From an uncultured Gammaproteobacteria bacterium (GTDB lineage: Bacteria; Patescibacteriota; Microgenomatia; Curtissbacterales; GWA2-41-24): DNA of 64,000 bases. A program made the position numbers and the translations under genes. The DNA lies in the NCBI GenBank assembly GCA_964492425.1, contig CAZBKB010000003.1:6682-70681 (forward strand). The letters run 5' to 3'. The notes beneath the pieces are model-generated. The model was not told the origin of the DNA, did not search any database, and saw only the letters and a list, made by a program, of their open reading frames with translations. Of this stretch, positions 5,978 through 19,700 are shown in pieces (the first letter of the stretch is position 1; every line of letters begins with the position of its first letter).

Positions 5978-6712
5978 GTGGACGACAGTCAAAAAAATAT
6001 AAAAAGCACGGAAGAAAAATCAAAAAAGACGGAAAAATCCGAAAATTCTGACCGAGGCGACAAAACCGCATCAACTATACCGTCAGAAGTCATAGATCAG
6101 TCCAAAAATACAGACAATACTAATGTTATCAATCAGGTCGATGATAATGAAAAATCCAAACCCCGCCCAGTAGACACTCCACCATTAAAAGGTGCCCACT
6201 GGTATGTTGTCCATACATATTCAGGCCACGAAGCAAAAGTCGCCGCAACTTTAAAACAACGGATTGAATCCCAAAAACTCAGCGACAAAATACTCGACAT
6301 TCTGGTTCCAACACAAGACAAAATAGAAATTAAAGAAGGCAAAAAATCTACAGTCAAAGAAAAGATTTTTCCCGGCTACTTACTTATTAATATGGTACTG
6401 GACGATAACACCTGGCTTGCGGTAAGAACCACACCGGGAATCACCGGCTTTATCGGCACTGCAAACAAACCGACACCACTTCCTGAGGCAGAAGTAGAAA
6501 CAATCAAACGCTTCATGAACTTGGAAGCTCCAAAGTTCAAGACGGCTTTCTCGCAGGGCGAAGCCGTAAAAATTACCGATGGACCCTTTGCCGAATTCTT
6601 GGGAACAATTTCTGAAATAGATGAAGAAAAAGGCAAACTTAAAATACTAGTTTCTATCTTCGGGCGCGAAACACCTGTTGAGCTTGATTTTCTACAAGTT
6701 GCAAAACTTTAA
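5978..6712 (+). CDS. nusG: Transcription antitermination factor NusG with a K/E/D-rich N-terminal extension of about 70 aa
   Basis: NGN domain ([15 protein letters not shown]) and C-terminal KOW ([22 protein letters not shown]). Conserved position secE-nusG-rplK. Confidence 0.9.
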
Positions 6713-6996: not shown

Positions 6997-7887
6997 GTGC
7001 CCAACATCAATAAAATCAAGCGCACGATAAAAAGGAATCGCTTAAAAATATTACTACTCGCCATTGCAGTCAGTACCATCACCTTCTTCTCATTAAATGA
7101 AATCTCACCAAACCAAATTGCCACAGAGCAAAATAAAACGCCATCTCCTAACCCAAACCAAATAACCACAATTACCGAACCTGATTCAAATATCCAAAAT
7201 CTTCTGCAAACAGAAATTCAACAACTTACAGGCACTTACAATATTGTCATAAAAGACCTAAAAACAAACCAGATTTACTCCATAGGACAAAACCAAAAAA
7301 TCCCCAGCGCCAGTATTTATAAACTTGCCGTTATGTACAAGGCTTTCGATGCGTTAGAAAAAGGAGAACTAAAAAAAAATCAGATTCTCTCAAACGGCCT
7401 AACTGTTGAAAAAGCACTGGAGCAAATGATAACTATATCCGATAACGAATCCGCCCTCATATTGGCAGAAAAACTAGGCTGGAAAAACATAAACTATTTT
7501 CTTCAAAGTGAAGGGGTTACAGGTTTTAACCTGATGATTAAAGATTACCCAGAAACAACTGCCAGGGCCACCGCAGATCTCCTTGAGAGAATTTACAGAA
7601 AAACCGCAGTCTCCGCCCAAGCATCGCGTGAAATGCTAGAACTACTGCTTGCTCAGCAAAAAAATGACCGAATCCCATCCCTTCTGCCACCAAATATCAA
7701 AGTAGCACATAAAACCGGAGAATTGGACAACTTCCGCCATGATGCCGGCATTGTCTTTGGCAAAAGAAGTGATTACATATTTGTATTTTTAACAGAAACA
7801 CCAGTCCCCGAAGATGCATACACAAACATTGCCAATCTCTCAAAAACCACGTTCGATGCACTGGAAAATCCCAATACCTTGAAATAA
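6997..7887 (+). CDS. Class A beta-lactamase-like serine hydrolase (membrane-anchored/secreted)
   Basis: N-terminal TM. SxxK (SASIYK), SDN (ISDNES) and KTG (HKTGEL) motifs in the canonical order and spacing. Confidence 0.65.
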   Translation: MPNINKIKRTIKRNRLKILLLAIAVSTITFFSLNEISPNQIATEQNKTPSPNPNQITTITEPDSNIQNLLQTEIQQLTGTYNIVIKDLKTNQIYSIGQNQKIPSASIYKLAVMYKAFDALEKGELKKNQILSNGLTVEKALEQMITISDNESALILAEKLGWKNINYFLQSEGVTGFNLMIKDYPETTARATADLLERIYRKTAVSAQASREMLELLLAQQKNDRIPSLLPPNIKVAHKTGELDNFRHDAGIVFGKRSDYIFVFLTETPVPEDAYTNIANLSKTTFDALENPNTLK

Positions 7888-8005: not shown

Positions 8006-8431
8006 ATGACAAAAAAAGTTAAAACCTTCATTAAGTTAACCCTCAAAGGCGGACAAGCAACTGCCGCCCCCCCAGTTGGAACGGCACTCTCACCTCAAGG
8101 TATACCTATAATGGACTTTGTCAAAGCTTTTAACGACAAAACAAAAGATCAAATGGGGACTCCCCTGCCTGTTGTAATTACAGTTTTTGAAGACAGGACT
8201 TTCGCTTTTATTGTAAAAAAACCTCCTGTTGCAGTCCTTATTAAAAAAGCTCTGAACATTGAAAAAGGTGCCCAAACTACAAGCAAGCAGACTGTTGGCA
8301 AACTATCAATCAACCAGGTAAAAAAAATCGCTGAAGAAAAAATGCCGGACTTAAACACCAAAAACATAGATGCTGCAACAAGAATAGTCCAAGGAACCGC
8401 AAGATCCATGGGGGTAGAAACCGAAATTTAA
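8006..8431 (+). CDS. rplK: 50S ribosomal protein L11
   Basis: MTKKVKTFIKLTLKGGQATAAPPVGTALSPQGI... signature. 141 aa. Confidence 0.9.
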   Translation: MTKKVKTFIKLTLKGGQATAAPPVGTALSPQGIPIMDFVKAFNDKTKDQMGTPLPVVITVFEDRTFAFIVKKPPVAVLIKKALNIEKGAQTTSKQTVGKLSINQVKKIAEEKMPDLNTKNIDAATRIVQGTARSMGVETEI

Positions 8432-8463
8432 AATTTCAAATTTAAAATTAAAAATTAATTAAT

Positions 8464-9435
8464 ATGGGCACCACTCGCATAAAAGTTATCGATCTTTCTT
8501 CAAGTCAGCAGGAAATTAAAACTGCAAGAAAGCACGCGGAAAAACTTTCTGGCGCAGTAAAAATTAAAAAGGATAAAACGAAAGCAGAAACAATACCTGC
8601 AAGCGAAATTCCAACCCAGGAAATACAAGCGACCTTGGCCCAAACACAAGAAATGCCGGTTGAACAAAAAGACTCAATCCCCGACACAAAAGTAAAGGAG
8701 GGAAAAAATCAACCAACCCCAATAGTTAAAAAAACAAAAGAGTCACCGCTCAAAAAACACGCACGCCACAAGGGCGCAAAATACCAAAAGGCAGCAGCTT
8801 TAATAGAGCCAAAAGACTATTCTCCAAAGGAAGCTTTCAAACTGCTACCCATGACATCTTTCACCAAATTCGACCCAACAGTGGAGGTACACCTGGGCCT
8901 TTCTGAAAAAAATATCAAAGTTACAGTCAATATGCCCCATTTTAAGGAAAAAAAGGACCATCACCCAAAATACTTAATTTTTGCCGACCAAAAAACTCTC
9001 CCCAAAGAAGCACAAGTAATCTGGGGTAATGAAAAAACAATTGCTGAGGTAGAAAAAGGATCCCTCAAAGCCGGTCGTGATTTTACAGAAGTTATTGCAT
9101 CTCCACAATACATGCCAAAACTTGCAAAAATCGCCAAAATCCTTGGACCAAAAGGTTTAATGCCAAACCCCAAAAACGAAACTGTTTCAGAAAATGTTGA
9201 AAAATTTTTCGATGGGTCTGCAAGTTTAGCCGGAACAACCGTAAAAACCGATCCAACAGCTCCAGTTATTCACACGAAAATCGGTAAACTTTCCCAGAAA
9301 ACAACCGAACTGGAAGCCAACTTCAAAGCACTCATAACTGCAATCGGCACCACAAAAATTAAAAAAGCAACGCTTACAACCTCGATGGGCCCACCAATCA
9401 GACTCGACCCTAATAAATTAACCGCTGCCCAATAG
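8464..9435 (+). CDS. rplA: 50S ribosomal protein L1 with an N-terminal K/E/T-rich extension of about 95 aa
   Basis: The L1 core begins near KHARHKGAKYQKAAALIEPKDYSPKEAFKLL...FDPTVEVHLGL. No Met is near the core start, so the extension appears to be translated. Confidence 0.85.
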   Translation: MGTTRIKVIDLSSSQQEIKTARKHAEKLSGAVKIKKDKTKAETIPASEIPTQEIQATLAQTQEMPVEQKDSIPDTKVKEGKNQPTPIVKKTKESPLKKHARHKGAKYQKAAALIEPKDYSPKEAFKLLPMTSFTKFDPTVEVHLGLSEKNIKVTVNMPHFKEKKDHHPKYLIFADQKTLPKEAQVIWGNEKTIAEVEKGSLKAGRDFTEVIASPQYMPKLAKIAKILGPKGLMPNPKNETVSENVEKFFDGSASLAGTTVKTDPTAPVIHTKIGKLSQKTTELEANFKALITAIGTTKIKKATLTTSMGPPIRLDPNKLTAAQ

Positions 9436-9537: not shown

Positions 9538-9567
9538 TTGACAACCCCCCCCCCACAATGATAGACT
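9538..9567 (+). promoter_or_regulatory. Sigma70-like promoter candidate for the inserted operon: TTGACA - 18 nt spacer containing C10 - TAGACT
   Basis: TTGACA at 9538-9543, TAGACT at 9562-9567, about 40 nt upstream of the 9607 start. The spacer contains a 10-nt homopolymeric C run in an otherwise low-GC genome. Confidence 0.4.
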
Positions 9568-9606: not shown

Positions 9607-12201
9607 ATGCCTAAAGAACAGCCACCGCTAAATTTAGAAGCCTTACAGGCAAAAGAGAGAAAACTGCAAGGCAGCCTGCTAAAGGCCGATCGCGTTGAGC
9701 TTACTTATACAGCCCGAATATACGCACCACATCTTGAGGAAGCAGTCAGAAAATCACCCGAAAAAGCAAGGTCTTGGGTCAACAAAGGCCAATTACTTCA
9801 GCCCCAGCACATTGCACTTGAAGCAAACATTCGGGTTGCCGATATTCGCGGAGCAATAAGGGACAATGCGATCCCGAAAATAGTGCAAAGCCTTGGCAAG
9901 ACCCAGGAGCAGATAAGAACACAAGACGAATCACCTGAACAAATAAGCATGTACGCCAGCCACCTTGAAGAATTAAAACGGGCAGCAACCTATGTCGAAG
10001 TCACCAAAGACAGAGTTATAGCAGGGCTTCTTACAAGCGGTGACCTAGACGAGGTCAAGGCTTACTACAGCAGCATAGAAAGCCTCCAGCAAACCGACCC
10101 CGAGCTTGCCCGCGCAAAAGAGGTCTACTTGGCAAAATTACAGAAGCAAGAAAGACAAGGCAGAACTACTTTTATCCCCCCAATTGAAAAACGAACTGGC
10201 AACGAACAAGAACCCCTAGCCTCTTTGAAAATCGACCGCAGCGTAAGTACAGTCCAAGTTGGTGGAAATGAGGTGGTTACACTGACCAAGGCTCAAATGG
10301 CCATCTTTGCAAGGCTGGCAAGGGAAACTAATGAAGCGGTGAAGCCGAAAACCCTGCGCGGTGTTCTAAAGAACGCGGGAGTCAGTCCTAAAACAAGCAT
10401 CACACAGGTCATTAATGAAATAAGAGCAAAAATTGAAGTAGATCCAAATGCACCTAAAATCTTAACCATGACTGGTTCAAGAAACGGTGCGAAATATGCC
10501 ATTAATGCCAATGTTGAATTTATCGGCAAATCAGAACGGTCAAGATTATCCAAAGAAGGATGGAAAATCTTCGAGATCGAGATGCCAGACGGTCAAGTTG
10601 TCAAAATTCAGGGTCAAAGATATGCCGATACCTTAAAACACTTGCTTCCGGCAACAATCGATAACCCAACAGGAACAGAAAGTCTATCAATGCAACTTTA
10701 TGGTAAAGCAGACAGAAGTAGTAGGAGCAGAGTTGCAAGCAAGGTAGCGAAGGTTAAAAGTGTACTCAAACCATACAATTGGACTGTAATTCAGCCTGTC
10801 CCACACGAAGATCTCAAATTTAAAAAGGGCGTAAAAAGCACTGAGCAACAAATCCCAAACGCCAAATATTATCTCGAAAAAATCACACCAGACGGTGTAC
10901 AAGCCAAACCGGCTACCTTTCCGCCAACCCCACCCGTTGAAACTCCGCCCGTACAAATTCCACCTGTAGAGTTTGGTCTTCGCCAAAGCCACCTAGACAC
11001 ACTCGACTACATCAGACAAAACCCAGACGGCCGGATGCAAACCGCAATCGCACTGCTTCGTACAACCAAGAAAGGCATTCCCCACACAAGGCCTCAAGCT
11101 GCTTTTGCAGCCAATCGCGCACTTTGGCATCTTTTCAACAGGAACCAAATGGGTATCGCAACAGAGGCAGAACAAGCTTTAAAAACCAACATCGAACAGG
11201 CACTTGGCTTAAAAGACGTTGAGGCAAAAGCCAAATTCAAAGAAATCGTAACCAACTTTTTCAGTTCAGATAGAAAGCAAGTTGAGGAAGTGCTTAAAAG
11301 CAAGGAAGTTAAAGAACCCATCAAAGAATTACCAACGGAAGCCGAAGTAGCACTTCTGGTAACTATCTACAAGCTAAGAAGAGACATTATTAAAAAATAC
11401 GAGCTGCCCCAACTCCCCCAAGATATAATCGAAGAGGCGTTAAAAGCATTCCCGGGAAGGCTAGATCTCGCAGCTGACGAGATAGTGAGCTTGCGCAATA
11501 GCGCCTACGACAAATTTGCAAGCATTGTCCAAAGCGACCAGTTAAACGAACTCTACGATCAAGCACCAGAAAGTACCAAGAAACTTATTATATATTTCAT
11601 GGAAATTGACCCTGAGACGCAACTTCAAGCACTCAAAGAAGCTTTACTTGCACCAACAGAAGCAGGATGGAAAGTGGTATCAGGCAGAGTTCAAGAATAC
11701 TGGAAAGGATTAGACGGCCATGAAATCAAAAGTGCCCAAACAGGGATAAATCCAATCCCAGATCCCGATGGGAAACCCGAAAATCAAAAACATACAGATT
11801 TGGCCGACTTAAGCACATCAAGTGTTTCCCCAGATAACCAAACAAACTCGATAACTGAAAAACCAAAGGTCTACAGCCTTGAGCGCCATGATCCCCAACT
11901 AAGGCAAAGAATACAGGGAATTCTGGACCAACTCGAATCAATAGCTGCCGACAGAAGTCGGACTCTCACGGTTCCGCAACTCGGTAATCTTGGCATCAAA
12001 GCAAAATTCGCCCAAAAAGTAGAGAGGGAGGGTTATATCCAAAGTAAAAAAGGACGAGACCATCATCCGATATTTACAGTCCATGAAGTAGCAATTCTTC
12101 TTTATTTAAAAGATTTTGCAAACGGTTTAAGCAAAAGAGACAAAAAACAAATAAGACATTTCGTCCAAGAAGAGTTGGCAAAACGAGATGAACAAAACTA
12201 A
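9607..12201 (+). CDS. Large (864 aa) protein with an internal OmpR/PhoB-type winged-helix DNA-binding domain. First gene of a three-gene insertion in the rplA-rplJ junction.
   Basis: Residues around 225-300 (VVTLTKAQMAIFARLARETNEAVKPKTLRGVLK...ITQVINEIRAKIEVDPNAPKILTMTGSRNGAKYAI) fit the trans_reg_C pattern. A Pro-rich linker PPTPPVETPPVQIPPVE follows. The rest is mostly helical with no other recognisable domain. Confidence 0.5.
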   Translation: MPKEQPPLNLEALQAKERKLQGSLLKADRVELTYTARIYAPHLEEAVRKSPEKARSWVNKGQLLQPQHIALEANIRVADIRGAIRDNAIPKIVQSLGKTQEQIRTQDESPEQISMYASHLEELKRAATYVEVTKDRVIAGLLTSGDLDEVKAYYSSIESLQQTDPELARAKEVYLAKLQKQERQGRTTFIPPIEKRTGNEQEPLASLKIDRSVSTVQVGGNEVVTLTKAQMAIFARLARETNEAVKPKTLRGVLKNAGVSPKTSITQVINEIRAKIEVDPNAPKILTMTGSRNGAKYAINANVEFIGKSERSRLSKEGWKIFEIEMPDGQVVKIQGQRYADTLKHLLPATIDNPTGTESLSMQLYGKADRSSRSRVASKVAKVKSVLKPYNWTVIQPVPHEDLKFKKGVKSTEQQIPNAKYYLEKITPDGVQAKPATFPPTPPVETPPVQIPPVEFGLRQSHLDTLDYIRQNPDGRMQTAIALLRTTKKGIPHTRPQAAFAANRALWHLFNRNQMGIATEAEQALKTNIEQALGLKDVEAKAKFKEIVTNFFSSDRKQVEEVLKSKEVKEPIKELPTEAEVALLVTIYKLRRDIIKKYELPQLPQDIIEEALKAFPGRLDLAADEIVSLRNSAYDKFASIVQSDQLNELYDQAPESTKKLIIYFMEIDPETQLQALKEALLAPTEAGWKVVSGRVQEYWKGLDGHEIKSAQTGINPIPDPDGKPENQKHTDLADLSTSSVSPDNQTNSITEKPKVYSLERHDPQLRQRIQGILDQLESIAADRSRTLTVPQLGNLGIKAKFAQKVEREGYIQSKKGRDHHPIFTVHEVAILLYLKDFANGLSKRDKKQIRHFVQEELAKRDEQN

Positions 12202-12225: not shown

Positions 12226-13695
12226 ATGAGCGAGAGAAAACCACTTTTTATTCAGGAAGATATTGTAAATGCCCACAAGTACGTGGAGCGAGTAAAAGGA
12301 CGCGTTGATGCAGGCCAACTTACAGACGAACATCTGCAGAGTGCCCAAGCATATCTTGCGGGAGTAGAATTTTACGAGCCCCACCGACCACATCAGCTGT
12401 CAAGACAAACAATACGTTCAAAAGAAGAGGGAGAAAAGTTTCTACCAAAAATCTTAGTTAATCCAGAAACAAAAAGGGTCGAAATACCAAAATACGAAAT
12501 CGCCACAAAAATACCAGGAAAAGTCGAATGGGTACTATTTACTTACCTTGCACAAAATCCAAATAAAGACCTTCCTAAACAGATTTTAATCGCGGTTGCC
12601 CAACAAGCCGGTTCTAGTGCAAATGATATTAGAGATTTAATCTATCGCTTAAGAAAGAGTTTGGAACCGGATTCTAAAAACCCACTAATAATTACTACCA
12701 CCAAAATAGATAGCAAGTATTTCTATAGCTTAAACGCCAAAGTAGAATTTGTAGAAGATGAAAAAGAAAAGGAAAAGAAAAAAGTAACAAAACCAAAAGA
12801 AACACAGGAAGAAAGGCGAAGCTATACCATTAATTTATCAGAACGATCCCTAACCGATCAAGTGACGGGCACAGTGTTGGATATTATCGACGATCTGGAT
12901 TTTGTTATTTTAGCTAAAATTGCCCAGTCACAACAAAAAGGCTTTCTCGGAGAAACAATTGCCAGAATCTGTCGTGAAGCAGGCGATAAAAAAGGACCGT
13001 CACACGGAGTCATCAAAAGATTAAGGAGTATCTTTAATGACACTGAAGATACTCCAAAAATCATCACTCAAACTGGCAAAACGAGAGGCACAAGATACTT
13101 TCTAAATGCGGACGTTGAGCTCATAAGCGATGAAAAGACAATTCAAGAAGTTTCATCCACCCAACCGGAAACAGACGAGAAACAGCCTGTTGCAAGCCCA
13201 GACCAGCAAGCCGCTGGCTCACCAAGGATTGATTCAGCACAACGAACCTACGTACCATACAAAGCAACAGAAGATGAAAAGAGATCCAGTGCGGAAAACC
13301 GTACATTAAAAGCAGTTATCTTGGCAATTCACCCAGTAAACAACACAATAGACTTTGAAACGCTGCAGAAAGGGTTATTTTCCCCGGATTCGATTTATCA
13401 AACACCAACCGGTAAATGGATCACTATAAAACAGGCAGATGAAATAATTGAGGTTTTTGACAGAGCTGTTGCTAAAATTCGCGAAGAGGCAGCAATACCT
13501 GCACTTCGCCAAAACTGGACCGACGGGGACAAACAAATCTGGGAAATACTGAACGAATCGATAAACCGTGTGTCCTCCGGAAATGTTGCAGAGTATTCCA
13601 AAAAACTTAAAAGTAAAATTAGACAGTCTCAAAATAGGTACTACAAGCAACCCCGCCCACAAAACGGTAACACCGTTTTTAGGATTAAAATATGA
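12226..13695 (+). CDS. 489-aa protein with two OmpR/PhoB-type winged-helix domains. Second gene of the insertion.
   Basis: Two trans_reg_C-like segments: KVEWVLFTYLAQNPNKDLPKQILIAVA...IRDLIYRLRKSLEPDSKNPLIITTTKIDSKYFY and VILAKIAQSQQKGFLGETIARICREAG...GVIKRLRSIFNDTEDTPKIITQTGKTRGTRYFL. Starts 24 nt after the upstream gene. Its stop overlaps the next start (ATGA). Confidence 0.5.
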   Translation: MSERKPLFIQEDIVNAHKYVERVKGRVDAGQLTDEHLQSAQAYLAGVEFYEPHRPHQLSRQTIRSKEEGEKFLPKILVNPETKRVEIPKYEIATKIPGKVEWVLFTYLAQNPNKDLPKQILIAVAQQAGSSANDIRDLIYRLRKSLEPDSKNPLIITTTKIDSKYFYSLNAKVEFVEDEKEKEKKKVTKPKETQEERRSYTINLSERSLTDQVTGTVLDIIDDLDFVILAKIAQSQQKGFLGETIARICREAGDKKGPSHGVIKRLRSIFNDTEDTPKIITQTGKTRGTRYFLNADVELISDEKTIQEVSSTQPETDEKQPVASPDQQAAGSPRIDSAQRTYVPYKATEDEKRSSAENRTLKAVILAIHPVNNTIDFETLQKGLFSPDSIYQTPTGKWITIKQADEIIEVFDRAVAKIREEAAIPALRQNWTDGDKQIWEILNESINRVSSGNVAEYSKKLKSKIRQSQNRYYKQPRPQNGNTVFRIKI

Positions 13696-15230
13696 AGGAA
13701 CACGAGCCTGTAATTAAACTAATAATCGAAGAGAAGTTCTCGCCCGGAGCAATAGAAGCTCTAATGGCTAATTACCGGGATGCCCAACTGGCTTTTTTAG
13801 AGCTTATAGATAATGCCATTGACAACCGTATTGAGGGCAGTGCCAATCCCCTGCAGGTTCGTGTTCGGGTTTCCAGAGACGAGCTCTCTGTCCATAATCA
13901 GGGTGGTGAGGGCTTAGACCTTTCCGGTCTTACAGACTTTTTCAACTGGGGCCATTCCGAAAAATCCGGGCGCATCGGCATTTGGGGTGTAGGCGGTAAA
14001 GGGGCTGCCGGCTATCTCGGCCAAAGCTTGGAATTAGTTTGCTCTGCCAAAGCTTCTCAACAGGAATACAAAGTAGCGGATCCAAACTGGACAAGAAGAG
14101 TAGAAGGCGAAACAAAACGACTCACACCGGAAGTGAAAAAGGCGCATACCGAAGACGGCTATTTCAGGATCAGAATAACCAATCTGACCAAAGAAGTTAA
14201 TGCGGCTGCTCTTACAACGAAACTTGGAGATATCTACCGCCCCCTGCTTTTAACCAATAGGGTCAAGATTAAAGTTAATGGTAAAGACGTTGAACCTCTT
14301 CAAATTCGCTATGTTGAAAACGATCCAAAATTAAAGCCTGATAATTTGCTTGTTCAAACACGCTTTGGGGACCATTTTGAGTTAAAAGTTGGGATAATGG
14401 AAGAAGGCCAAATCCTTAAACCGGGTATCCGATGCTATTATCATGGGCGTTTAATAGAAGCGGAGCATTTTTTCGGTCACCCAACTCCAGCCCAAATGCC
14501 CGAAGCGGCAAGACTAATTGGTGAGGTAGACTTCGATTTCGTCCCGGTAACGCCGAATAAATCCAGCTTCATACACTCCTCACCTCAATGGATTCATGCT
14601 TCAAAAAGAATGCAGGAGGTACTAACTCCATGGAATGATAAATTGCAAGGTATAAAAATAGACCACAGGACACCAGTTGAAAACTACGAAAAAGAGTTAG
14701 CCAGAAAAGCAAAAAGGGTACTCGAGCACGTCCTTGCAACCACCGGGATAATCACCAAAACTATGCTGCCGGGAGAATCCGAAGGCCGCAGACCGCCAGG
14801 CCCAAGTGGTAAGCCAAAGGTTAAAACCGGCAGAACAAGTTCAAGCCGTGGTCCCCAGGAAGGTCAGACAGCTCCTGTTCTCGACGCAACCATCGGTGAA
14901 ATGAAACGCTGGGGTGCTTTGCACGAGATAGATGTTGCTCCAATGGGAAATAACGGTAGAAGAAGTGAAGCAATAGACGAAAAAGGTCGGAAAATTTTAA
15001 AAATTAACTCCGACCATCCTCTATATCAAGCCGAAAAAAAGGCTGGAGACGACGCCCTGGGTCTTTATCAGACGGAAACCGCCATTTTAAAAATTGCCGA
15101 GCTTGCAACACAAGGCAAATCAATTGAGGAATACATCGAGCTTGTTGACAATCTTTCTCGAGAATGTGGAGCTGTTTATAATGCTCGACTGGCCCAAAGA
15201 GATAGAAAAAACGGGAGAAGAAAAAAATAA
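13692..15230 (+). CDS. MORC/Hsp90-like GHKL (Bergerat-fold) ATPase. Third gene of the insertion.
   Basis: N-terminal GHKL motifs. N-box FLELIDNAIDN. G1-like VHNQGGEGLD. G2 box GIWGVGGKGAAGYLG (MORC-type GxYGxGxK). 4-nt overlap with the upstream gene. Confidence 0.6.
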   Translation: MKEHEPVIKLIIEEKFSPGAIEALMANYRDAQLAFLELIDNAIDNRIEGSANPLQVRVRVSRDELSVHNQGGEGLDLSGLTDFFNWGHSEKSGRIGIWGVGGKGAAGYLGQSLELVCSAKASQQEYKVADPNWTRRVEGETKRLTPEVKKAHTEDGYFRIRITNLTKEVNAAALTTKLGDIYRPLLLTNRVKIKVNGKDVEPLQIRYVENDPKLKPDNLLVQTRFGDHFELKVGIMEEGQILKPGIRCYYHGRLIEAEHFFGHPTPAQMPEAARLIGEVDFDFVPVTPNKSSFIHSSPQWIHASKRMQEVLTPWNDKLQGIKIDHRTPVENYEKELARKAKRVLEHVLATTGIITKTMLPGESEGRRPPGPSGKPKVKTGRTSSSRGPQEGQTAPVLDATIGEMKRWGALHEIDVAPMGNNGRRSEAIDEKGRKILKINSDHPLYQAEKKAGDDALGLYQTETAILKIAELATQGKSIEEYIELVDNLSRECGAVYNARLAQRDRKNGRRKK

Positions 15231-15299
15231 TAATTGCCAGTACATTGACAATCGACATTCATTATTGCTATATTTCCCCTAGTCCAAAGACCGTAGCTA

Positions 15300-15514
15300 T
15301 TCACTTCGTTCAGAATAAACTCGAGCAAAGTGAGGTTAAATTTCAAAGGTCACTCAGGGTCTACCCTGAGGAGTACACGATGAAGGGCTACGCAGGCGAA
15401 GCCCCGTTTGACGGGGCGAAGCGCTCTTAAGCTTTCCTGTCCTTCGTAGTTTTAACGAATAAGGAATGCGAGGGAGGAAAAAAAGGTCATAAAATTCAAA
15501 TTTTTTGACCATCC
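15300..15514 (+). promoter_or_regulatory. Structured 5' leader upstream of rplJ (candidate L10 autoregulatory leader)
   Basis: About 310 nt noncoding before rplJ, with stable hairpins CTCAGGGT-CT-ACCCTGAG (15353-15370) and GCCCCGT-TTG-ACGGGGC (15401-15417). The position matches the known rplJ leader in other bacteria. The L10-binding structure itself was not verified. Confidence 0.3.
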
Positions 15515-15539
15515 AACGTCTCTTTGGAGACGTTTTTTT
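15515..15539 (+). terminator. Intrinsic terminator/attenuator hairpin immediately 5' of the rplJ start codon
   Basis: AACGTCTC-TTTG-GAGACGTT followed by TTTTT, ending 1 nt before the rplJ ATG at 15540. Confidence 0.5.
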
Positions 15540-16091
15540 ATGAAAAAACAAACTAAATCTGCACGCGAAATAAAAGAAGATAAAGTTACCGCGTTTAGTG
15601 AAAAAATAGAAAAAGCAAAAACTGTAACTTTTGCCGACTACCGTGGTTTAACCGCAAATCAGCTGACAGAATTAAGAGCAAAAGTAAAAAACGTCGGTGG
15701 TGAATTTTTAGTCGAAAAAAATAATTTGATCAAGATCTCCTTAAAATCTACAAAACACCAAATTCCATCGGGCCAAGATCAGTTGCTAGTAGGCCCCACA
15801 GCCGCAATCGTTGCATATGACGATGAAATTGCACCAATAAGAGAAATCGCCGAAAGTAACAAAAACTTTGGTCTTCCAATTTTTAAGTTCGGCTTTTTTA
15901 ATGAAAACTTTTTAACTTCAGAAAATGTCGAAAAACTATCCAAAATACCAAGTAGGGACGCGCTTCTTCAAAAAATGGTTGCCTCTCTCAACTCACCGCT
16001 TTATGGAATAGTTTCGGTTCTTTCTGCAAATCTCAAAAACCTTGTTTACACGCTAAGCGCAATAAAAACAAGAAAGGAAACTAACACCTAA
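15540..16091 (+). CDS. rplJ: 50S ribosomal protein L10
   Basis: TFADYRGLTANQLTELRAKV motif. 183 aa. Upstream of rplL. Confidence 0.85.
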   Translation: MKKQTKSAREIKEDKVTAFSEKIEKAKTVTFADYRGLTANQLTELRAKVKNVGGEFLVEKNNLIKISLKSTKHQIPSGQDQLLVGPTAAIVAYDDEIAPIREIAESNKNFGLPIFKFGFFNENFLTSENVEKLSKIPSRDALLQKMVASLNSPLYGIVSVLSANLKNLVYTLSAIKTRKETNT

Positions 16092-16163
16092 TTACTGGCA
16101 ACTAAAGTTCTTGTGTCAGTCGCCAGACTTAATGCGTTAGACATTGAACGGAGGTGAATTTAT

Positions 16164-16745
16164 ATGGCAGACAACAATCAAAAAGCAGCCGGTGCTGCAG
16201 TCGATGCAGAGGAAGCCGCAAAAGAAGCACAAGATGCTGCACAAAAGGCTGAAAAGGCAGCAGATGAGGCCAGGGAGGTAAAAGAGGAGGTAAAAGAAGT
16301 CGCACAAAAGGTTGAAGAGAAAAAAGTGGAATCAAAAGAAGAAAAACCACAAGTAAAAGTATCTGCAAATTTAGAAAAGATTATCAAATCAATTGAGGGA
16401 CTTTCTATTTTGGAATTAGCAGATTTAGTAAAAGCTCTTGAGGAAAAGTTTGGAGTTTCGGCAGCAGTACCGACAGCAGCAATAGCAGCAGGCACACCGG
16501 CAGCAGGCACTGAGCAGGAAGGAAGTGAACAAACAACTTTCAATGTAATTTTAGCAGACGGCGGTGCAAACAAAATTTCAGTGATTAAAGCTGTTCGTGA
16601 GCTTGTCCCAACACTTGGCCTTGCAGAAGCAAAAACTTTAGTCGACACCGCTCCAAAAACAGTTCTTGAAGGAGTTAACAAGGAAAACGCAAATGAAGCA
16701 AAAACTAAGCTTGAAGCAGTTGGCGCGAAAGTCGAGCTAAAGTAA
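16164..16745 (+). CDS. rplL: 50S ribosomal protein L7/L12 with an A/E/K-rich N-terminal extension of about 68 aa
   Basis: GGAGGTGA RBS 8 nt upstream of the [66 protein letters not shown]...[12 protein letters not shown]. Confidence 0.9.
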
Positions 16746-17767: not shown

Positions 17768-17980
17768 ATGGCACTAGGAGATGACTGGCCGGATTTGCTA
17801 ACAGTTAAGGAAGTTGCAAAAATACTTCGGGTTGCTCCACTTACAGTCAAACGATGGGGCAAGCGCGGTAAACTGCCGGCAATTAGGATAAACTCCCGCG
17901 GCGACCGCAGATATAAAAAAGAAGCAGTGCTTTGGCTACTCGGCGCGATCAAATCTGTAGACCAGTCTTTAAATCAATAA
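17768..17980 (+). CDS. HTH_17 (excisionase/MerR-like) family DNA-binding protein
   Basis: LLTVKEVAKILRVAPLTVKRWGKRGKLPAIRI matches the excisionase-family HTH. 70 aa. Confidence 0.55.
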   Translation: MALGDDWPDLLTVKEVAKILRVAPLTVKRWGKRGKLPAIRINSRGDRRYKKEAVLWLLGAIKSVDQSLNQ

Positions 17981-18088: not shown

Positions 18089-18655
18089 GTGCAAAGTAAA
18101 CTCCAAATAATAACTAAATCCACAACAACCAAAACAATTTTAGCAACTATTGCCGTATCAGCACTGATTGGCTCCGCCATAATCTTCCCTTCTCTACCAT
18201 ATGCAATCAGCAAATTCACCAAGCTTAATACTAAAAAAGAAAAATACTATCTCAAAAAAGTTTTCAAAAAGCTTGAAAGGCAAAACCTCATATCCATCTC
18301 CGAAACATCGGATGGAAAAGTAAAAATTACATTAACGGAAAACGGTAGGGCAAGAATTCTAGACCATAAAATAGATGCTATAACAATTAAAAAAGCAGAT
18401 AACTGGGATAAAATATGGCGACTAGTAATCTTTGATATTCCAGAAACCAAAAAAGTAAATCGAGATATATTTAGGCAAAAGTTAAAAAACTTAGGTTTCT
18501 ATCCCCTTCAAAAAAGCATCTTTGCGATTCCTTATCATTGCAAAGACGAAATAGACTTTCTAAAACACAACTTCGGCATTGCAGATCACGTTACATACAT
18601 CGAAGCAAAATATATAGACAAGCAAAACCACCTAAGAAACTATTTCCAAATTTAA
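18089..18655 (+). CDS. PaaX-like regulator (wHTH plus PaaX_C/Cas2-like C-terminal domain) with an N-terminal TM
   Basis: WRLVIFDIPETKKVNRDIFRQKLKNLGFYPLQKSIFAIPY matches the PaaX C-terminal motif (W..V.F.iPE..R..R..L..LGFg.L...vw). N-terminal wHTH-like ISISETSDGKVKITLTENGRARIL. Confidence 0.45.
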   Translation: MQSKLQIITKSTTTKTILATIAVSALIGSAIIFPSLPYAISKFTKLNTKKEKYYLKKVFKKLERQNLISISETSDGKVKITLTENGRARILDHKIDAITIKKADNWDKIWRLVIFDIPETKKVNRDIFRQKLKNLGFYPLQKSIFAIPYHCKDEIDFLKHNFGIADHVTYIEAKYIDKQNHLRNYFQI

Positions 18656-19572: not shown

Positions 19573-19623
19573 TAACCCATATCTCATAGCAAACAAGCCG
19601 CCACATTAATCCCCGATCTATCC

Positions 19624-19700
19624 AAAAACACGCCTAAAGCCAGGCTTTAAAGTTAAGAATGCAAAAACACGCCTAAAGCCAGGCTTTAAAGCTAAGAATG
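19624..19700. repeat. Tandem direct repeat (2 x about 39 bp), each copy containing the palindrome AAAGCC-A-GGCTTT. Probable bidirectional terminator between convergent genes.
   Basis: caaaaacacgcctaaagccaggctttaaag(t/c)taagaatg occurs twice in tandem. The same core (caaagccaggctttgaaagctaa) occurs at 244-268. Confidence 0.6.

Follow-up and report, generated by a model that had tools for sequence, protein, structure and literature searches.

The forward-strand open reading frame (ORF) at 13692–15230 of a 64,000-nucleotide (nt) stretch of a Curtissbacterales contig (CAZBKB010000003.1; the whole stretch is hereafter the window) very probably codes for a GHKL ATPase that belongs, as a divergent member, to the prokaryotic MORC family. 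It is the last of three co-directional genes, following ORF-A and ORF-B, and both of these encode winged helix-turn-helix (wHTH) proteins of the OmpR/PhoB type. As the best reading of this cassette, held tentatively and short of even confidence, we propose a MORC DNA clamp guided by wHTH adaptors and not a restriction-type system; with the firm family identity and the more doubtful mechanism combined, our confidence in the whole account is evenly balanced. No description of a cassette joining MORC to OmpR-type wHTH arrays was found in the open-access literature.

The MORC gene, an ATG-to-stop ORF of 512 amino acids (aa), was recovered exactly as reported, and the three motifs picked out in an earlier sequence-only reading of this DNA, FLELIDNAIDN (aa 35–45), HNQGGEG (aa 68–74) and GIWGVGGKGAAGYLG (aa 96–110), are all present in its translation, well outside what chance would give. 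Searches with the single protein were uninformative, as Pfam returned HATPase_c_3 at E = 0.015 (15.7 bits, below the cut-off of 25), NCBIfam a weak sacsin-like GHKL match (23 bits against a cut-off of 50) and phmmer no match in the PDB, and a family profile was therefore needed. Full-length homologs number 65, with lengths of ~510 aa and identities of 29–100%, and an alignment of 63 sequences of the family (alignment A1) served as the basis of both the profile and an AlphaFold2 model. Within a representative library of 1.84 billion proteins the profile matched 184 clusters at E < 1e-30, 647 at E < 1e-10 and 2415 at E < 1e-3, and Pfam identified HATPase_c_3 in 61 and Morc6_S5 in 9 of the 63 family members.

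The best PDB matches of the family profile are human or mouse MORC3 (6o1e, 5.6e-12; 5ix1, 1.5e-11) and MORC4 (7k7t, 4.5e-11), followed by SMCHD1 at 1.7e-3, with GyrB/ParE reaching E ~0.07 or worse. The MORC3/4 alignments fall into two stretches, one covering the GHKL N-terminal domain with its N-box, G1 and G2 motifs and the other the S5 transducer (aa 245–321). The AlphaFold2 model is confident (mean predicted local distance difference test score (pLDDT) 84.8, predicted template modeling score 0.78), and a Foldseek search of the PDB with this model ranks the ATPase-CW cassettes of MORC3 and MORC4 first (E ~2.4e-14), closely followed by TRAP1/Hsp90, MORC2 and SMCHD1, all of which combine a GHKL domain with an S5-fold domain. 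Profile search and structure comparison both support the MORC-like GHKL ATPase proposed in the sequence-only reading, and the best matches that would have spoken for a histidine kinase, MutL or a topoisomerase did not appear, GyrB/ParE being marginal and the others absent. The predicted layout is that of a GHKL domain and S5 transducer followed by a disordered linker, a C-terminal α/β domain and a basic tail.

Conservation of the sequence motifs agrees with this assignment. Positions D40, N41, D44, G72, G74, G96, G99, G101, G102 and K103 are invariant across the 63 aligned sequences. Motif I has the pattern E-x3-N-A-x-D, with E37 as the general base (Glu in 47 and Asp in 14 members of the clade), N41 as the Mg2+ ligand and D44. 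The G2 box, of the pattern G-x-x-G-x-G-x-K, reads I95-G-I-W-G-V-G-G-K103, none of its four glycines varies in the close clade and its lysine is invariant in all homolog groups; the box aligns residue by residue with MORC3 GLYGNGFKSGSMRLG, lysine included, which bears out the earlier suggestion that it is of the MORC type. The S5 motif GhXhhpXXRhl separates MORCs from all other GHKL proteins (PMC2292703), and its G245 and R253 show no variation in the close clade and almost none in wider sets. Further into the S5 domain K290 is invariant and, by analogy with MutL and MORC, may be the conserved basic finger that reaches toward the nucleotide γ-phosphate. Above-threshold Morc6_S5 matches occur, along with strong HATPase_c_3 matches, in distant relatives (profile E ~1e-36 to 1e-40), which are canonical prokaryotic MORCs. 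Two of these distant proteins carry fused helix-turn-helix (HTH) domains (Sigma70_r4 and DnaA_C in P0201; an AbiEi/DUF6577-like region in P0209), so the coupling of MORC to HTH domains recurs in this branch.

Membership in other GHKL families was rejected. There is no MutL match in Pfam or NCBIfam and none among the PDB profile matches (E up to 10); GyrB/ParE, as given above, leaves no case for a topoisomerase; and the histidine kinase match is a marginal HATPase_c (E = 0.056) without HisKA, in a protein that has its GHKL domain at the N-terminus and S5 after it, with no kinase in the PDB profile search over the same range. The eukaryotic MORC type was also set aside, as no CW zinc finger or coiled coil is matched in Pfam or seen in the model. 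The best profile and structure matches of the window protein are nonetheless to the ATPase module of eukaryotic MORCs (MORC2/3/4, C. elegans MORC-1, Toxoplasma MORC), which are analogous in being DNA-clamping ATPases that rely on separate DNA- or chromatin-reading modules. The window MORC differs from them in lacking the CW zinc finger, the coiled-coil insertion and a chromo-like domain, in having a different C-terminal domain, in not keeping the G1 Asp and in that separate wHTH proteins of the OmpR type would supply its targeting. Type I-D Shedu (paraMORC3; VcSduA) shares an N-terminal GHKL ATPase of the MORC-related radiation and a predicted dimeric clamp (PMC12137116), but Shedu variants end in a C-terminal PD-(D/E)xK nuclease (DUF4263), and we found no DUF4263 in the window MORC with Pfam or PADLOC and no nuclease in a fold search of its C-terminus. 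Mza was rejected likewise, as neither the window protein nor the intermediate relatives match MzaB in PADLOC; weak MzaB matches occur among the distant canonical MORCs only.

The nearly equal Foldseek E-values of TRAP1/HtpG and MORC3/4 also invite a reading as an Hsp90/HtpG-like chaperone of N-M-C layout, with the partner proteins as its clients, and the order of GHKL domain, S5-like middle domain and small C-terminal α/β domain is shared with Hsp90, HtpG and TRAP1, the last domain weakly resembling the C-terminal dimerisation domain of HtpG. We regard this as highly improbable. Neither Pfam HSP90 nor any Hsp90 among PDB profile matches up to E = 10 was found, the protein has the G2 lysine and the S5 motif specific to MORCs, its operon encodes DNA-binding partners, and full-length TRAP1 alignments (root-mean-square deviation ~20 Å; template modeling (TM) score 0.43) share the GHKL and S5 core only, so that the likeness lies at the level of fold and Hsp90/HtpG membership was rejected.

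The nucleotide pocket departs from the canonical GHKL pattern at two positions. Pocket residues were counted after aligning all homologs to the family hidden Markov model (HMM), separately for the close clade, an intermediate group and the canonical distant group. The G1 box, D-x-G-x-G in canonical proteins, keeps its glycines and gains an extra one to become N-x-G-G-x-G-L, and the adenine-contacting Asp is replaced at position 69 by Asn in all 61 close-clade sequences; the intermediate group has Asn in 35 and Asp in 31 (the rest Ser, Ala, Gly or other), and the canonical distant group Asp in 19 of 26. The Thr of motif IV is gone too, position 158 being Phe in 62/62 close-clade sequences, Val in 60 and Thr in 17 of the intermediate group and Thr in 13 of 29 canonical distant ones, and two Chloroflexota members (P0064, P0076) have Ile or Val immediately before the G-G of the G1 box. 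The G1 Asp and motif-IV Thr are catalytic features of the superfamily and not synapomorphies of the MORC family, and their replacement leaves the family assignment intact. The sequence-only reading had called the G1 box degenerate; its degeneracy is real, but the change goes further, to an Asp-to-Asn substitution that is fixed under selection and shows no decay.

ATP binding is lost in Hsp90 and GyrB when the corresponding Asp is changed to Asn (D79N and D73N, respectively). With the adenine-contacting Asp fixed as Asn and the motif-IV Thr replaced by Phe, the nucleotide cycle is, judging from these residues, probably non-canonical, whether weak, slow or of altered specificity. A more extreme possibility is that the protein is a nucleotide-independent pseudo-ATPase scaffold that keeps the GHKL fold, binds no ATP and acts as a structural partner of the wHTH proteins, and besides the effect of the equivalent mutations this would accommodate the universal Asn and Phe, the Ile, Val or other residues at G1 in part of the sister clade and the replacement of the catalytic Glu by Asp in 14 of 61 sequences. 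We nevertheless think it quite unlikely. An acidic general base is kept throughout despite the atypical G1 box and motif IV, and the phosphate- and Mg2+-handling residues N41, G96/G99/G101/G102/K103 and K290 are invariant under strong purifying selection, which is hard to explain without nucleotide binding; Asn69, moreover, is strictly fixed and not drifting, which suggests a maintained ligand contact.

The sequence-only reading had singled out the C-terminal 350 aa for nuclease or S5-fold transducer domains, and these residues hold the S5-fold transducer with its MORC motif, a disordered linker and an α/β domain of ~110 aa without likeness to a nuclease. In the AlphaFold2 model the S5 domain is followed by a long helix, then the linker, then the compact C-terminal domain, which modeled alone reaches a pLDDT of 83 and carries the motifs R406-W407-G408 and I-N439-x-D-x-P. 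The I-N439-x-x-x-P form of the latter is common to canonical prokaryotic MORCs (such as P0179 and P0193), and an Arg/Lys-rich tail ends all homologs. A PDB fold search with the domain model gave no significant match, with a recurring weak one to the C-terminal dimerisation domain of E. coli HtpG (1sf8; TM 0.42, probability 0.69, E = 0.15–0.3). The domain is probably a dimerisation module, and its tail would contact nucleic acid. As a separate observation, about 11 of the 63 MORC homologs (e.g. P0007, P0008, P0025, P0028–P0030, P0033–P0035, P0060) have a further conserved tail of the form RG[TS]I.F after the basic stretch; the window MORC lacks it, and the ORF-B-type partners end in a similar, β-strand-like G-x-x-V-x-[WF]-I. 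That the two are competing or docking peptides is pure speculation.

The product of ORF-B, whose stop codon overlaps the MORC start with an AGGA element 8 nt upstream, is representative of a partner type (B-type) that shares an N-terminal helical region, one to at least three clear OmpR/PhoB-type wHTH modules and a novel C-terminal domain. Its first module scores above the Pfam cut-off for Trans_reg_C (26.2 bits), and a profile of the wHTH modules matches DrrB best in the PDB (1.6e-8), followed by WalR, ToxR, KdpE, MtrA and OmpR. No Response_reg match was found in the partners, and the PDB alignments span the effector domain only. The partners resemble receiver-less OmpR/PhoB-type proteins such as those of the ToxR type in the effector domain, but differ from them in that the modules, from one to at least three per protein, form tandem arrays without a receiver or transmembrane segment, continue into coiled-coil or helical regions and the novel C-terminal domain as fusions, and are genetically locked to MORC. 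Searching with ORF-B as a single sequence returned itself and one 39% homolog only.

The C-terminal domain of ORF-B, with the pattern PY-x-[PA]-x-E-[DE]-E-x-RS ... F..LQ ... K.REE ... L...W (PY-x-P-[ST]-E-[DE]-E-x-RS ... K.REE ... L...W as the form common to B-type proteins), is present in all B-type partners of the candidate phyla radiation (CPR) type and is a candidate MORC-docking module. No relative of it was found in Pfam or the PDB, and the match of an effector-associated domain, EAD10, within it is weak and below threshold (E = 0.013–0.058). ORF-A ends in a different module of ~105 aa ('RDP...HHP...Y-L-K'), for which a profile gave no significant PDB match; a likeness to MerR-like BldC or RacA (E ~0.5 only) was rejected as no evidence. 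Across Pfam, PADLOC, NCBIfam, PHROGs and PDB profiles, no helicase, nuclease, methylase, TIR or other enzyme or effector domain is detectable in any cassette protein. PADLOC matches none of the three window proteins, and PHROGs matches neither MORC nor ORF-B, with phrog_731 matching the wHTH of ORF-A only.

An ATPase of the GHKL superfamily beside OmpR/PhoB-type effector domains could suggest a degenerate two-component-like pair, in which a GHKL kinase would regulate or phosphorylate OmpR-family factors controlling nearby genes; HATPase_c is weakly matched, and paraMORC derivatives resembling two-component systems have been described (PMC8011034). The chance of this appears slight. The ATPase has neither a HisKA/DHp nor a sensor domain and the partners have no receiver, the profile matches MORCs and not kinases, and the protein has an S5 transducer bearing the MORC signature. 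Genes neighboring the cassette, moreover, vary between loci, so there is no conserved adjacent regulon.

To place the cassette in context, 84 loci of a genome collection were compared along with several metagenome contigs and the loci of specific homologs. A B-type gene lies directly upstream of MORC on the same strand in 12/12 independent close-clade loci of the CPR type (the window, L001, L003, L005–L010 and L087–L089, with L014 marginal), and the two genes overlap by the 4 nt ATGA in at least six (the window, L001, L003, L010, L088 and L089). An ORF-A-type protein occurs upstream or downstream of MORC in 6–7 of 13 loci (the window, L001, L010, L014, L087 and L089; L088 by eye). The earlier remark that the partner genes encode wHTH proteins in place of nucleases or methylases thus extends to all 12 loci, whose cassettes contain no superfamily II (SF-II) helicase, restriction endonuclease or methylase. 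Among prokaryotic MORCs described before, ~70% of operons combine genes for SF-II helicases with genes for restriction endonucleases or methylases (PMC2292703), and such an operon context is contextual for the family and does not define it. The window protein and that family share the succession of GHKL domain and S5 transducer, the GhXhhpXXRhl motif, K290, the G2 lysine and the C-terminal I-N-x-x-x-P domain; they differ in the invariant partner, here a multi-wHTH protein with a novel C-terminal domain, in the fixed G1 Asn and motif-IV Phe, and in the restriction of the present clade, where named, to Microgenomates.

Several loci show variations on the cassette. The B-type partner in L003 (7586–10004) seems to be split by a frameshift, a 698-aa ORF ending where the C-terminal domain starts (IPYEATVDE...) and the next, 117-aa ORF holding the rest, which reflects either an error in sequencing or a partner turned pseudogene beside an intact MORC. 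L088 (11530–16446) holds an expanded cassette in which MORC is followed by a second B-type protein (526 aa; A4 domain at 1.1e-19), an 801-aa ORF-A-type protein and an uncharacterised 306-aa protein, all co-directional with overlapping or abutting ends. A divergent cassette in L014 (7912–13776) consists of a 683-aa partner, a MORC of 36% identity and a 429-aa ORF-A-type protein. The Curtissbacteria metagenome-assembled genome MFBU01 contains two family members (L006 and L015), one 60% identical to the window MORC with two wHTH partners and the other a 33% paralog without a wHTH partner.

By Pfam identities, the window cassette interrupts the canonical nusG-rplK-rplA / rplJ-rplL cluster. A conserved association with the ribosomal operon was rejected, since the closest relative (MORC 85% identical; L087) and most other loci lie elsewhere. 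L087 keeps the trio of ORF-A, ORF-B and MORC in a different neighborhood, next to DUF5674, a HicB-like gene and, on the minus strand, a large gene whose product looks by eye like a class A penicillin-binding protein; the L001 cassette lies between a peptidyl-prolyl isomerase gene and nrdR, and that of L003 beside bipA. Besides the window, only L014 adjoins the 3' end of rplA, in convergent orientation, the second case among ~13 loci, and this may reflect a hotspot or coincidence. At the insertion in the window we found no meaningful direct or inverted flanking repeats and no integrase, and phage and plasmid collections contain no MORC relatives, IMG/VR two remote ones only.

Three loci (L007, L008 and L089) share synteny with rseP-frr-tsf(-rpsB), and comparison of two Levybacteria genomes (L007 and L008) gives identities of 52% for MORC, 51% for the RseP-like protease, 57% for Frr and 60% for EF-Ts. 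The MORC core, with identity near that of its syntenic neighbors, therefore evolves at a housekeeping rate, and the B-type partner is 33% identical over part of its length. From these identities MORC was apparently inherited vertically in the Levybacteria lineage while its DNA-binding partner diverged much faster. Close-clade members, where named, belong to Curtissbacteria and Levybacteria (Microgenomates group, Patescibacteria). A sister clade of 28–36% identity in Chloroflexota, Dormibacterota and Limnocylindria (L011–L084) has no wHTH partner and often adjoins Doc/Fic (Pfam 3.8e-14), PIN/VapC (5.5e-13) and ribbon-helix-helix (RHH) antitoxin-like genes, pointing for that clade to a setting of the toxin-antitoxin or defence-island type.

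These neighborhoods bear on the main rival to an adaptor-guided clamp, a new type of anti-phage or anti-mobile-element defence system in which wHTH arrays would sense foreign DNA and MORC would serve as switch or motor, while the effector would be either some activity of ORF-A or ORF-B that escaped recognition or the very act of immobilising invader DNA. We assign this rival a minor but appreciable chance. Prokaryotic MORC and paraMORC families lie mostly in restriction-modification or defence neighborhoods (PMC2292703), and paraMORC3 is a validated Shedu variant (PMC12137116). The partners diverge fast (27–33% identity against 52–60% for MORC), as expected of sensors in an arms race, the three genes have changed place together between close relatives and the family is patchily distributed. 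The toxin-antitoxin genes (Doc/Fic, PIN, RHH) beside the distant clade, the MzaB matches and AbiEi-like fusions of distant relatives and the sub-threshold EAD10 match in ORF-B point the same way. Set against this are the lack of any PADLOC match or detectable effector domain in the window proteins, the absence of relatives from phage and plasmid collections, the housekeeping rate of MORC with synteny kept in three loci, and an insertion without integrase, flanking repeats or other hallmarks of an island. The sequence-only reading had pointed to defence-like contexts for prokaryotic MORC-like ATPases; the precedent holds for the family, and a defence context of the window cassette would be conjecture.

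In the adaptor-guided clamp that we tentatively prefer, the multivalent wHTH proteins would bind DNA, and ORF-B, which is translationally coupled to MORC, would use its conserved C-terminal domain to dock, recruit or load MORC through a direct physical interaction. MORC would be constitutively dimeric through its C-terminal domain, and nucleotide-dependent closure of its GHKL N-terminal gate would clamp, entrap or bridge DNA, with local compaction or silencing and no cleavage as the outcome, acting perhaps to silence or organise the cell's own or foreign DNA. AP2 factors recruit the MORC protein of Toxoplasma. Among eukaryotic proteins, C. elegans MORC-1 is described as topologically entrapping and condensing DNA (PMC8277788), human MORC2 binds DNA (PMC11185635; PDB 9cdj), and Toxoplasma MORC has been studied in a repressor complex along with ApiAP2 DNA-binding factors (PMC11122372).

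Several observations weigh against this mechanism. The G1 Asp-to-Asn and motif-IV Thr-to-Phe changes match ones that abolish ATP binding in other GHKL proteins, and with the former strictly fixed, canonical ATP binding and an ATP-driven clamp cycle are not assured. The C-terminal dimerisation role draws on a non-significant fold match (E = 0.15–0.3), and the linkage of ORF-B to MORC is genomic only. Tandem-repeat searches for wHTH target arrays gave no relevant repeats within the window, and no DNA target was found there. Finally, prokaryotic MORCs were tied earlier to restriction-modification contexts (PMC2292703), and the distant Chloroflexota/Dormibacterota clade beside toxin-antitoxin genes is at least as compatible with a role in conflict as with one in organising the chromosome.

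Table 1 Cassette genes, protein motifs and flanking elements of the window, with positions counted from its first nucleotide
Feature	Position	Strand	Basis or remark
MORC-family GHKL ATPase gene	13692..15230	+	ORF, 65 homologs, profile and Foldseek match to MORC3/4
Motif I / N-box FLELIDNAIDN, aa 35–45	13794..13826	+	aligned to MORC3 ELIDNAYD
Atypical G1 box HNQGGEGL, aa 68–75	13893..13916	+	N69 in place of adenine-contacting Asp, extra Gly
MORC-type G2 box IGIWGVGGKGAAGYLG, aa 95–110	13974..14021	+	K103 invariant
Motif IV G156-Y157-F158	14157..14165	+	canonical Thr replaced by Phe; family HMM alignment
MORC-specific S5 signature GhXhhpXXRhl, G245-IRCYYHG-R253-LI	14424..14456	+	aligned to MORC3 GIMMYHRNRLI
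S5-domain N289-K290	14556..14561	+	Lys invariant in all groups; aligned to MORC3 T-H-N-K
Low-complexity Pro/Gly/Arg-rich linker, aa 364–405	14781..14906	+	pLDDT <50, poorly aligned; predicted disordered
C-terminal α/β domain, aa 406–512, ending in basic tail	14907..15227	+	3 strands, 3 helices; separate model
ORF-B, 489 aa, obligate MORC partner	12226..13695	+	stop overlaps MORC start (ATGA)
ORF-B wHTH module 1, aa 79–176, OmpR/PhoB type	12460..12753	+	Pfam Trans_reg_C 6.9e-7, 29.7 bits
ORF-B wHTH module 2, aa 212–300	12859..13125	+	module comparison/profile
ORF-B conserved C-terminal domain, aa 338–489 (~150 aa)	13237..13692	+	alignment A4
ORF-A, 864 aa, accessory cassette member	9607..12201	+	coiled-coil N-terminus, wHTH, long helical region, C-terminal module
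ORF-A wHTH module, aa 214–306	10246..10524	+	domain matches, module profile
ORF-A C-terminal module, aa 756–864 (RHDP ... HHP ... Y-L-K-D)	11872..12198	+	recurrent third cassette component
rplK and rplA, upstream boundary	8006..9435	+	Pfam Ribosomal_L11, Ribosomal_L1
rplJ and rplL, downstream boundary	15540..16745	+	Pfam Ribosomal_L10, Ribosomal_L12
Promoter-like site TTGACA-18-TAGACT with TG	9538..9567	+	40 nt upstream of ORF-A; consensus match only
Promoter-like site TTGACA-18-TATATT, 11/12	15245..15274	+	just past MORC stop, upstream of rplJ; consensus match only

Further observations concern the surroundings of the cassette. Promoter-like sites of the type found before ORF-A are not enriched over shuffled sequences. 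Between the strong promoter-like site downstream of MORC and the rplJ start lies a leader of 265 nt (15275–15539, +), closed by a GC hairpin and T-run (15515–15539) that abuts the rplJ ATG; Rfam gave no L10-leader in 15225–15545 at the gathering threshold or at E<=1, so the leader could be an L10-leader or attenuator variant outside Rfam. A gene of the Beta-lactamase2 family (6997–7887, +; Pfam 2.1e-42) between nusG (5978–6712) and rplK (8006–8431) interrupts for a second time the nusG-rplKAJL cluster, which is normally contiguous. Ribosomal protein L1 (8464–9435, +; 323 aa) has a Lys/Glu/Thr-rich N-terminal extension of ~130 aa, the Pfam L1 domain starting at residue 132, and an extension of similar kind occurs in the L014 homolog of L1; L7/L12 (16164–16745, +; 193 aa) has an Ala/Glu/Lys-rich extension of ~70 aa, Pfam L12_N starting at residue 71.

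Farther downstream, a 70-aa MerR/HTH_17 (excisionase-like) ORF (17768–17980, +) lies ~1 kb beyond rplL, and the strand opposite to it encodes two small secreted-looking proteins (cupredoxin-like and CarboxypepD_reg-like). It is followed by a 188-aa protein with a PaaX_M (Cas2-like) domain (18089–18655, +; 5.2e-22) and a weak CRISPR_Cas2 match, and no CRISPR array was seen in a tandem-repeat scan of the window. An intergenic 39-nt tandem duplication (two copies, 97% matching; 19623–19700) is flanked by inositol-monophosphatase-like and phosphoglucomutase-like genes, judged by eye from translations.

The biochemistry of bacterial MORCs is poorly understood (PMC8011034, 2021), and their presumed role derives from restriction-modification neighborhoods. 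The clade described here offers a stripped-down system of a MORC with DNA-binding adaptors, without a detected nuclease, helicase or methylase, together with a natural series of variants (Asp, Asn and Ile/Val) at the adenine-binding Asp position. It also brings two protein domains that are uncharacterised, one at the C-terminus of ORF-B and one at that of ORF-A. Were the cassette a defence system instead, it would be one without a recognisable effector. If the adaptor-guided clamp is correct, the cassette would provide a tractable prokaryotic model for the loading of MORC on DNA and for its ATPase cycle, and would bear on the origin of eukaryotic MORC silencing. A bolder idea, which we consider rather unlikely, is that the vertically inherited, nuclease-free Microgenomates MORC, guided by wHTH-array adaptors, is a machine for chromosomal compaction or silencing; it would then be a bacterial counterpart of repression by eukaryotic MORCs and DNA-binding factors, and adaptor-guided DNA clamping, not restriction, may be an ancestral activity of MORCs, possibly running on a non-canonical nucleotide cycle.

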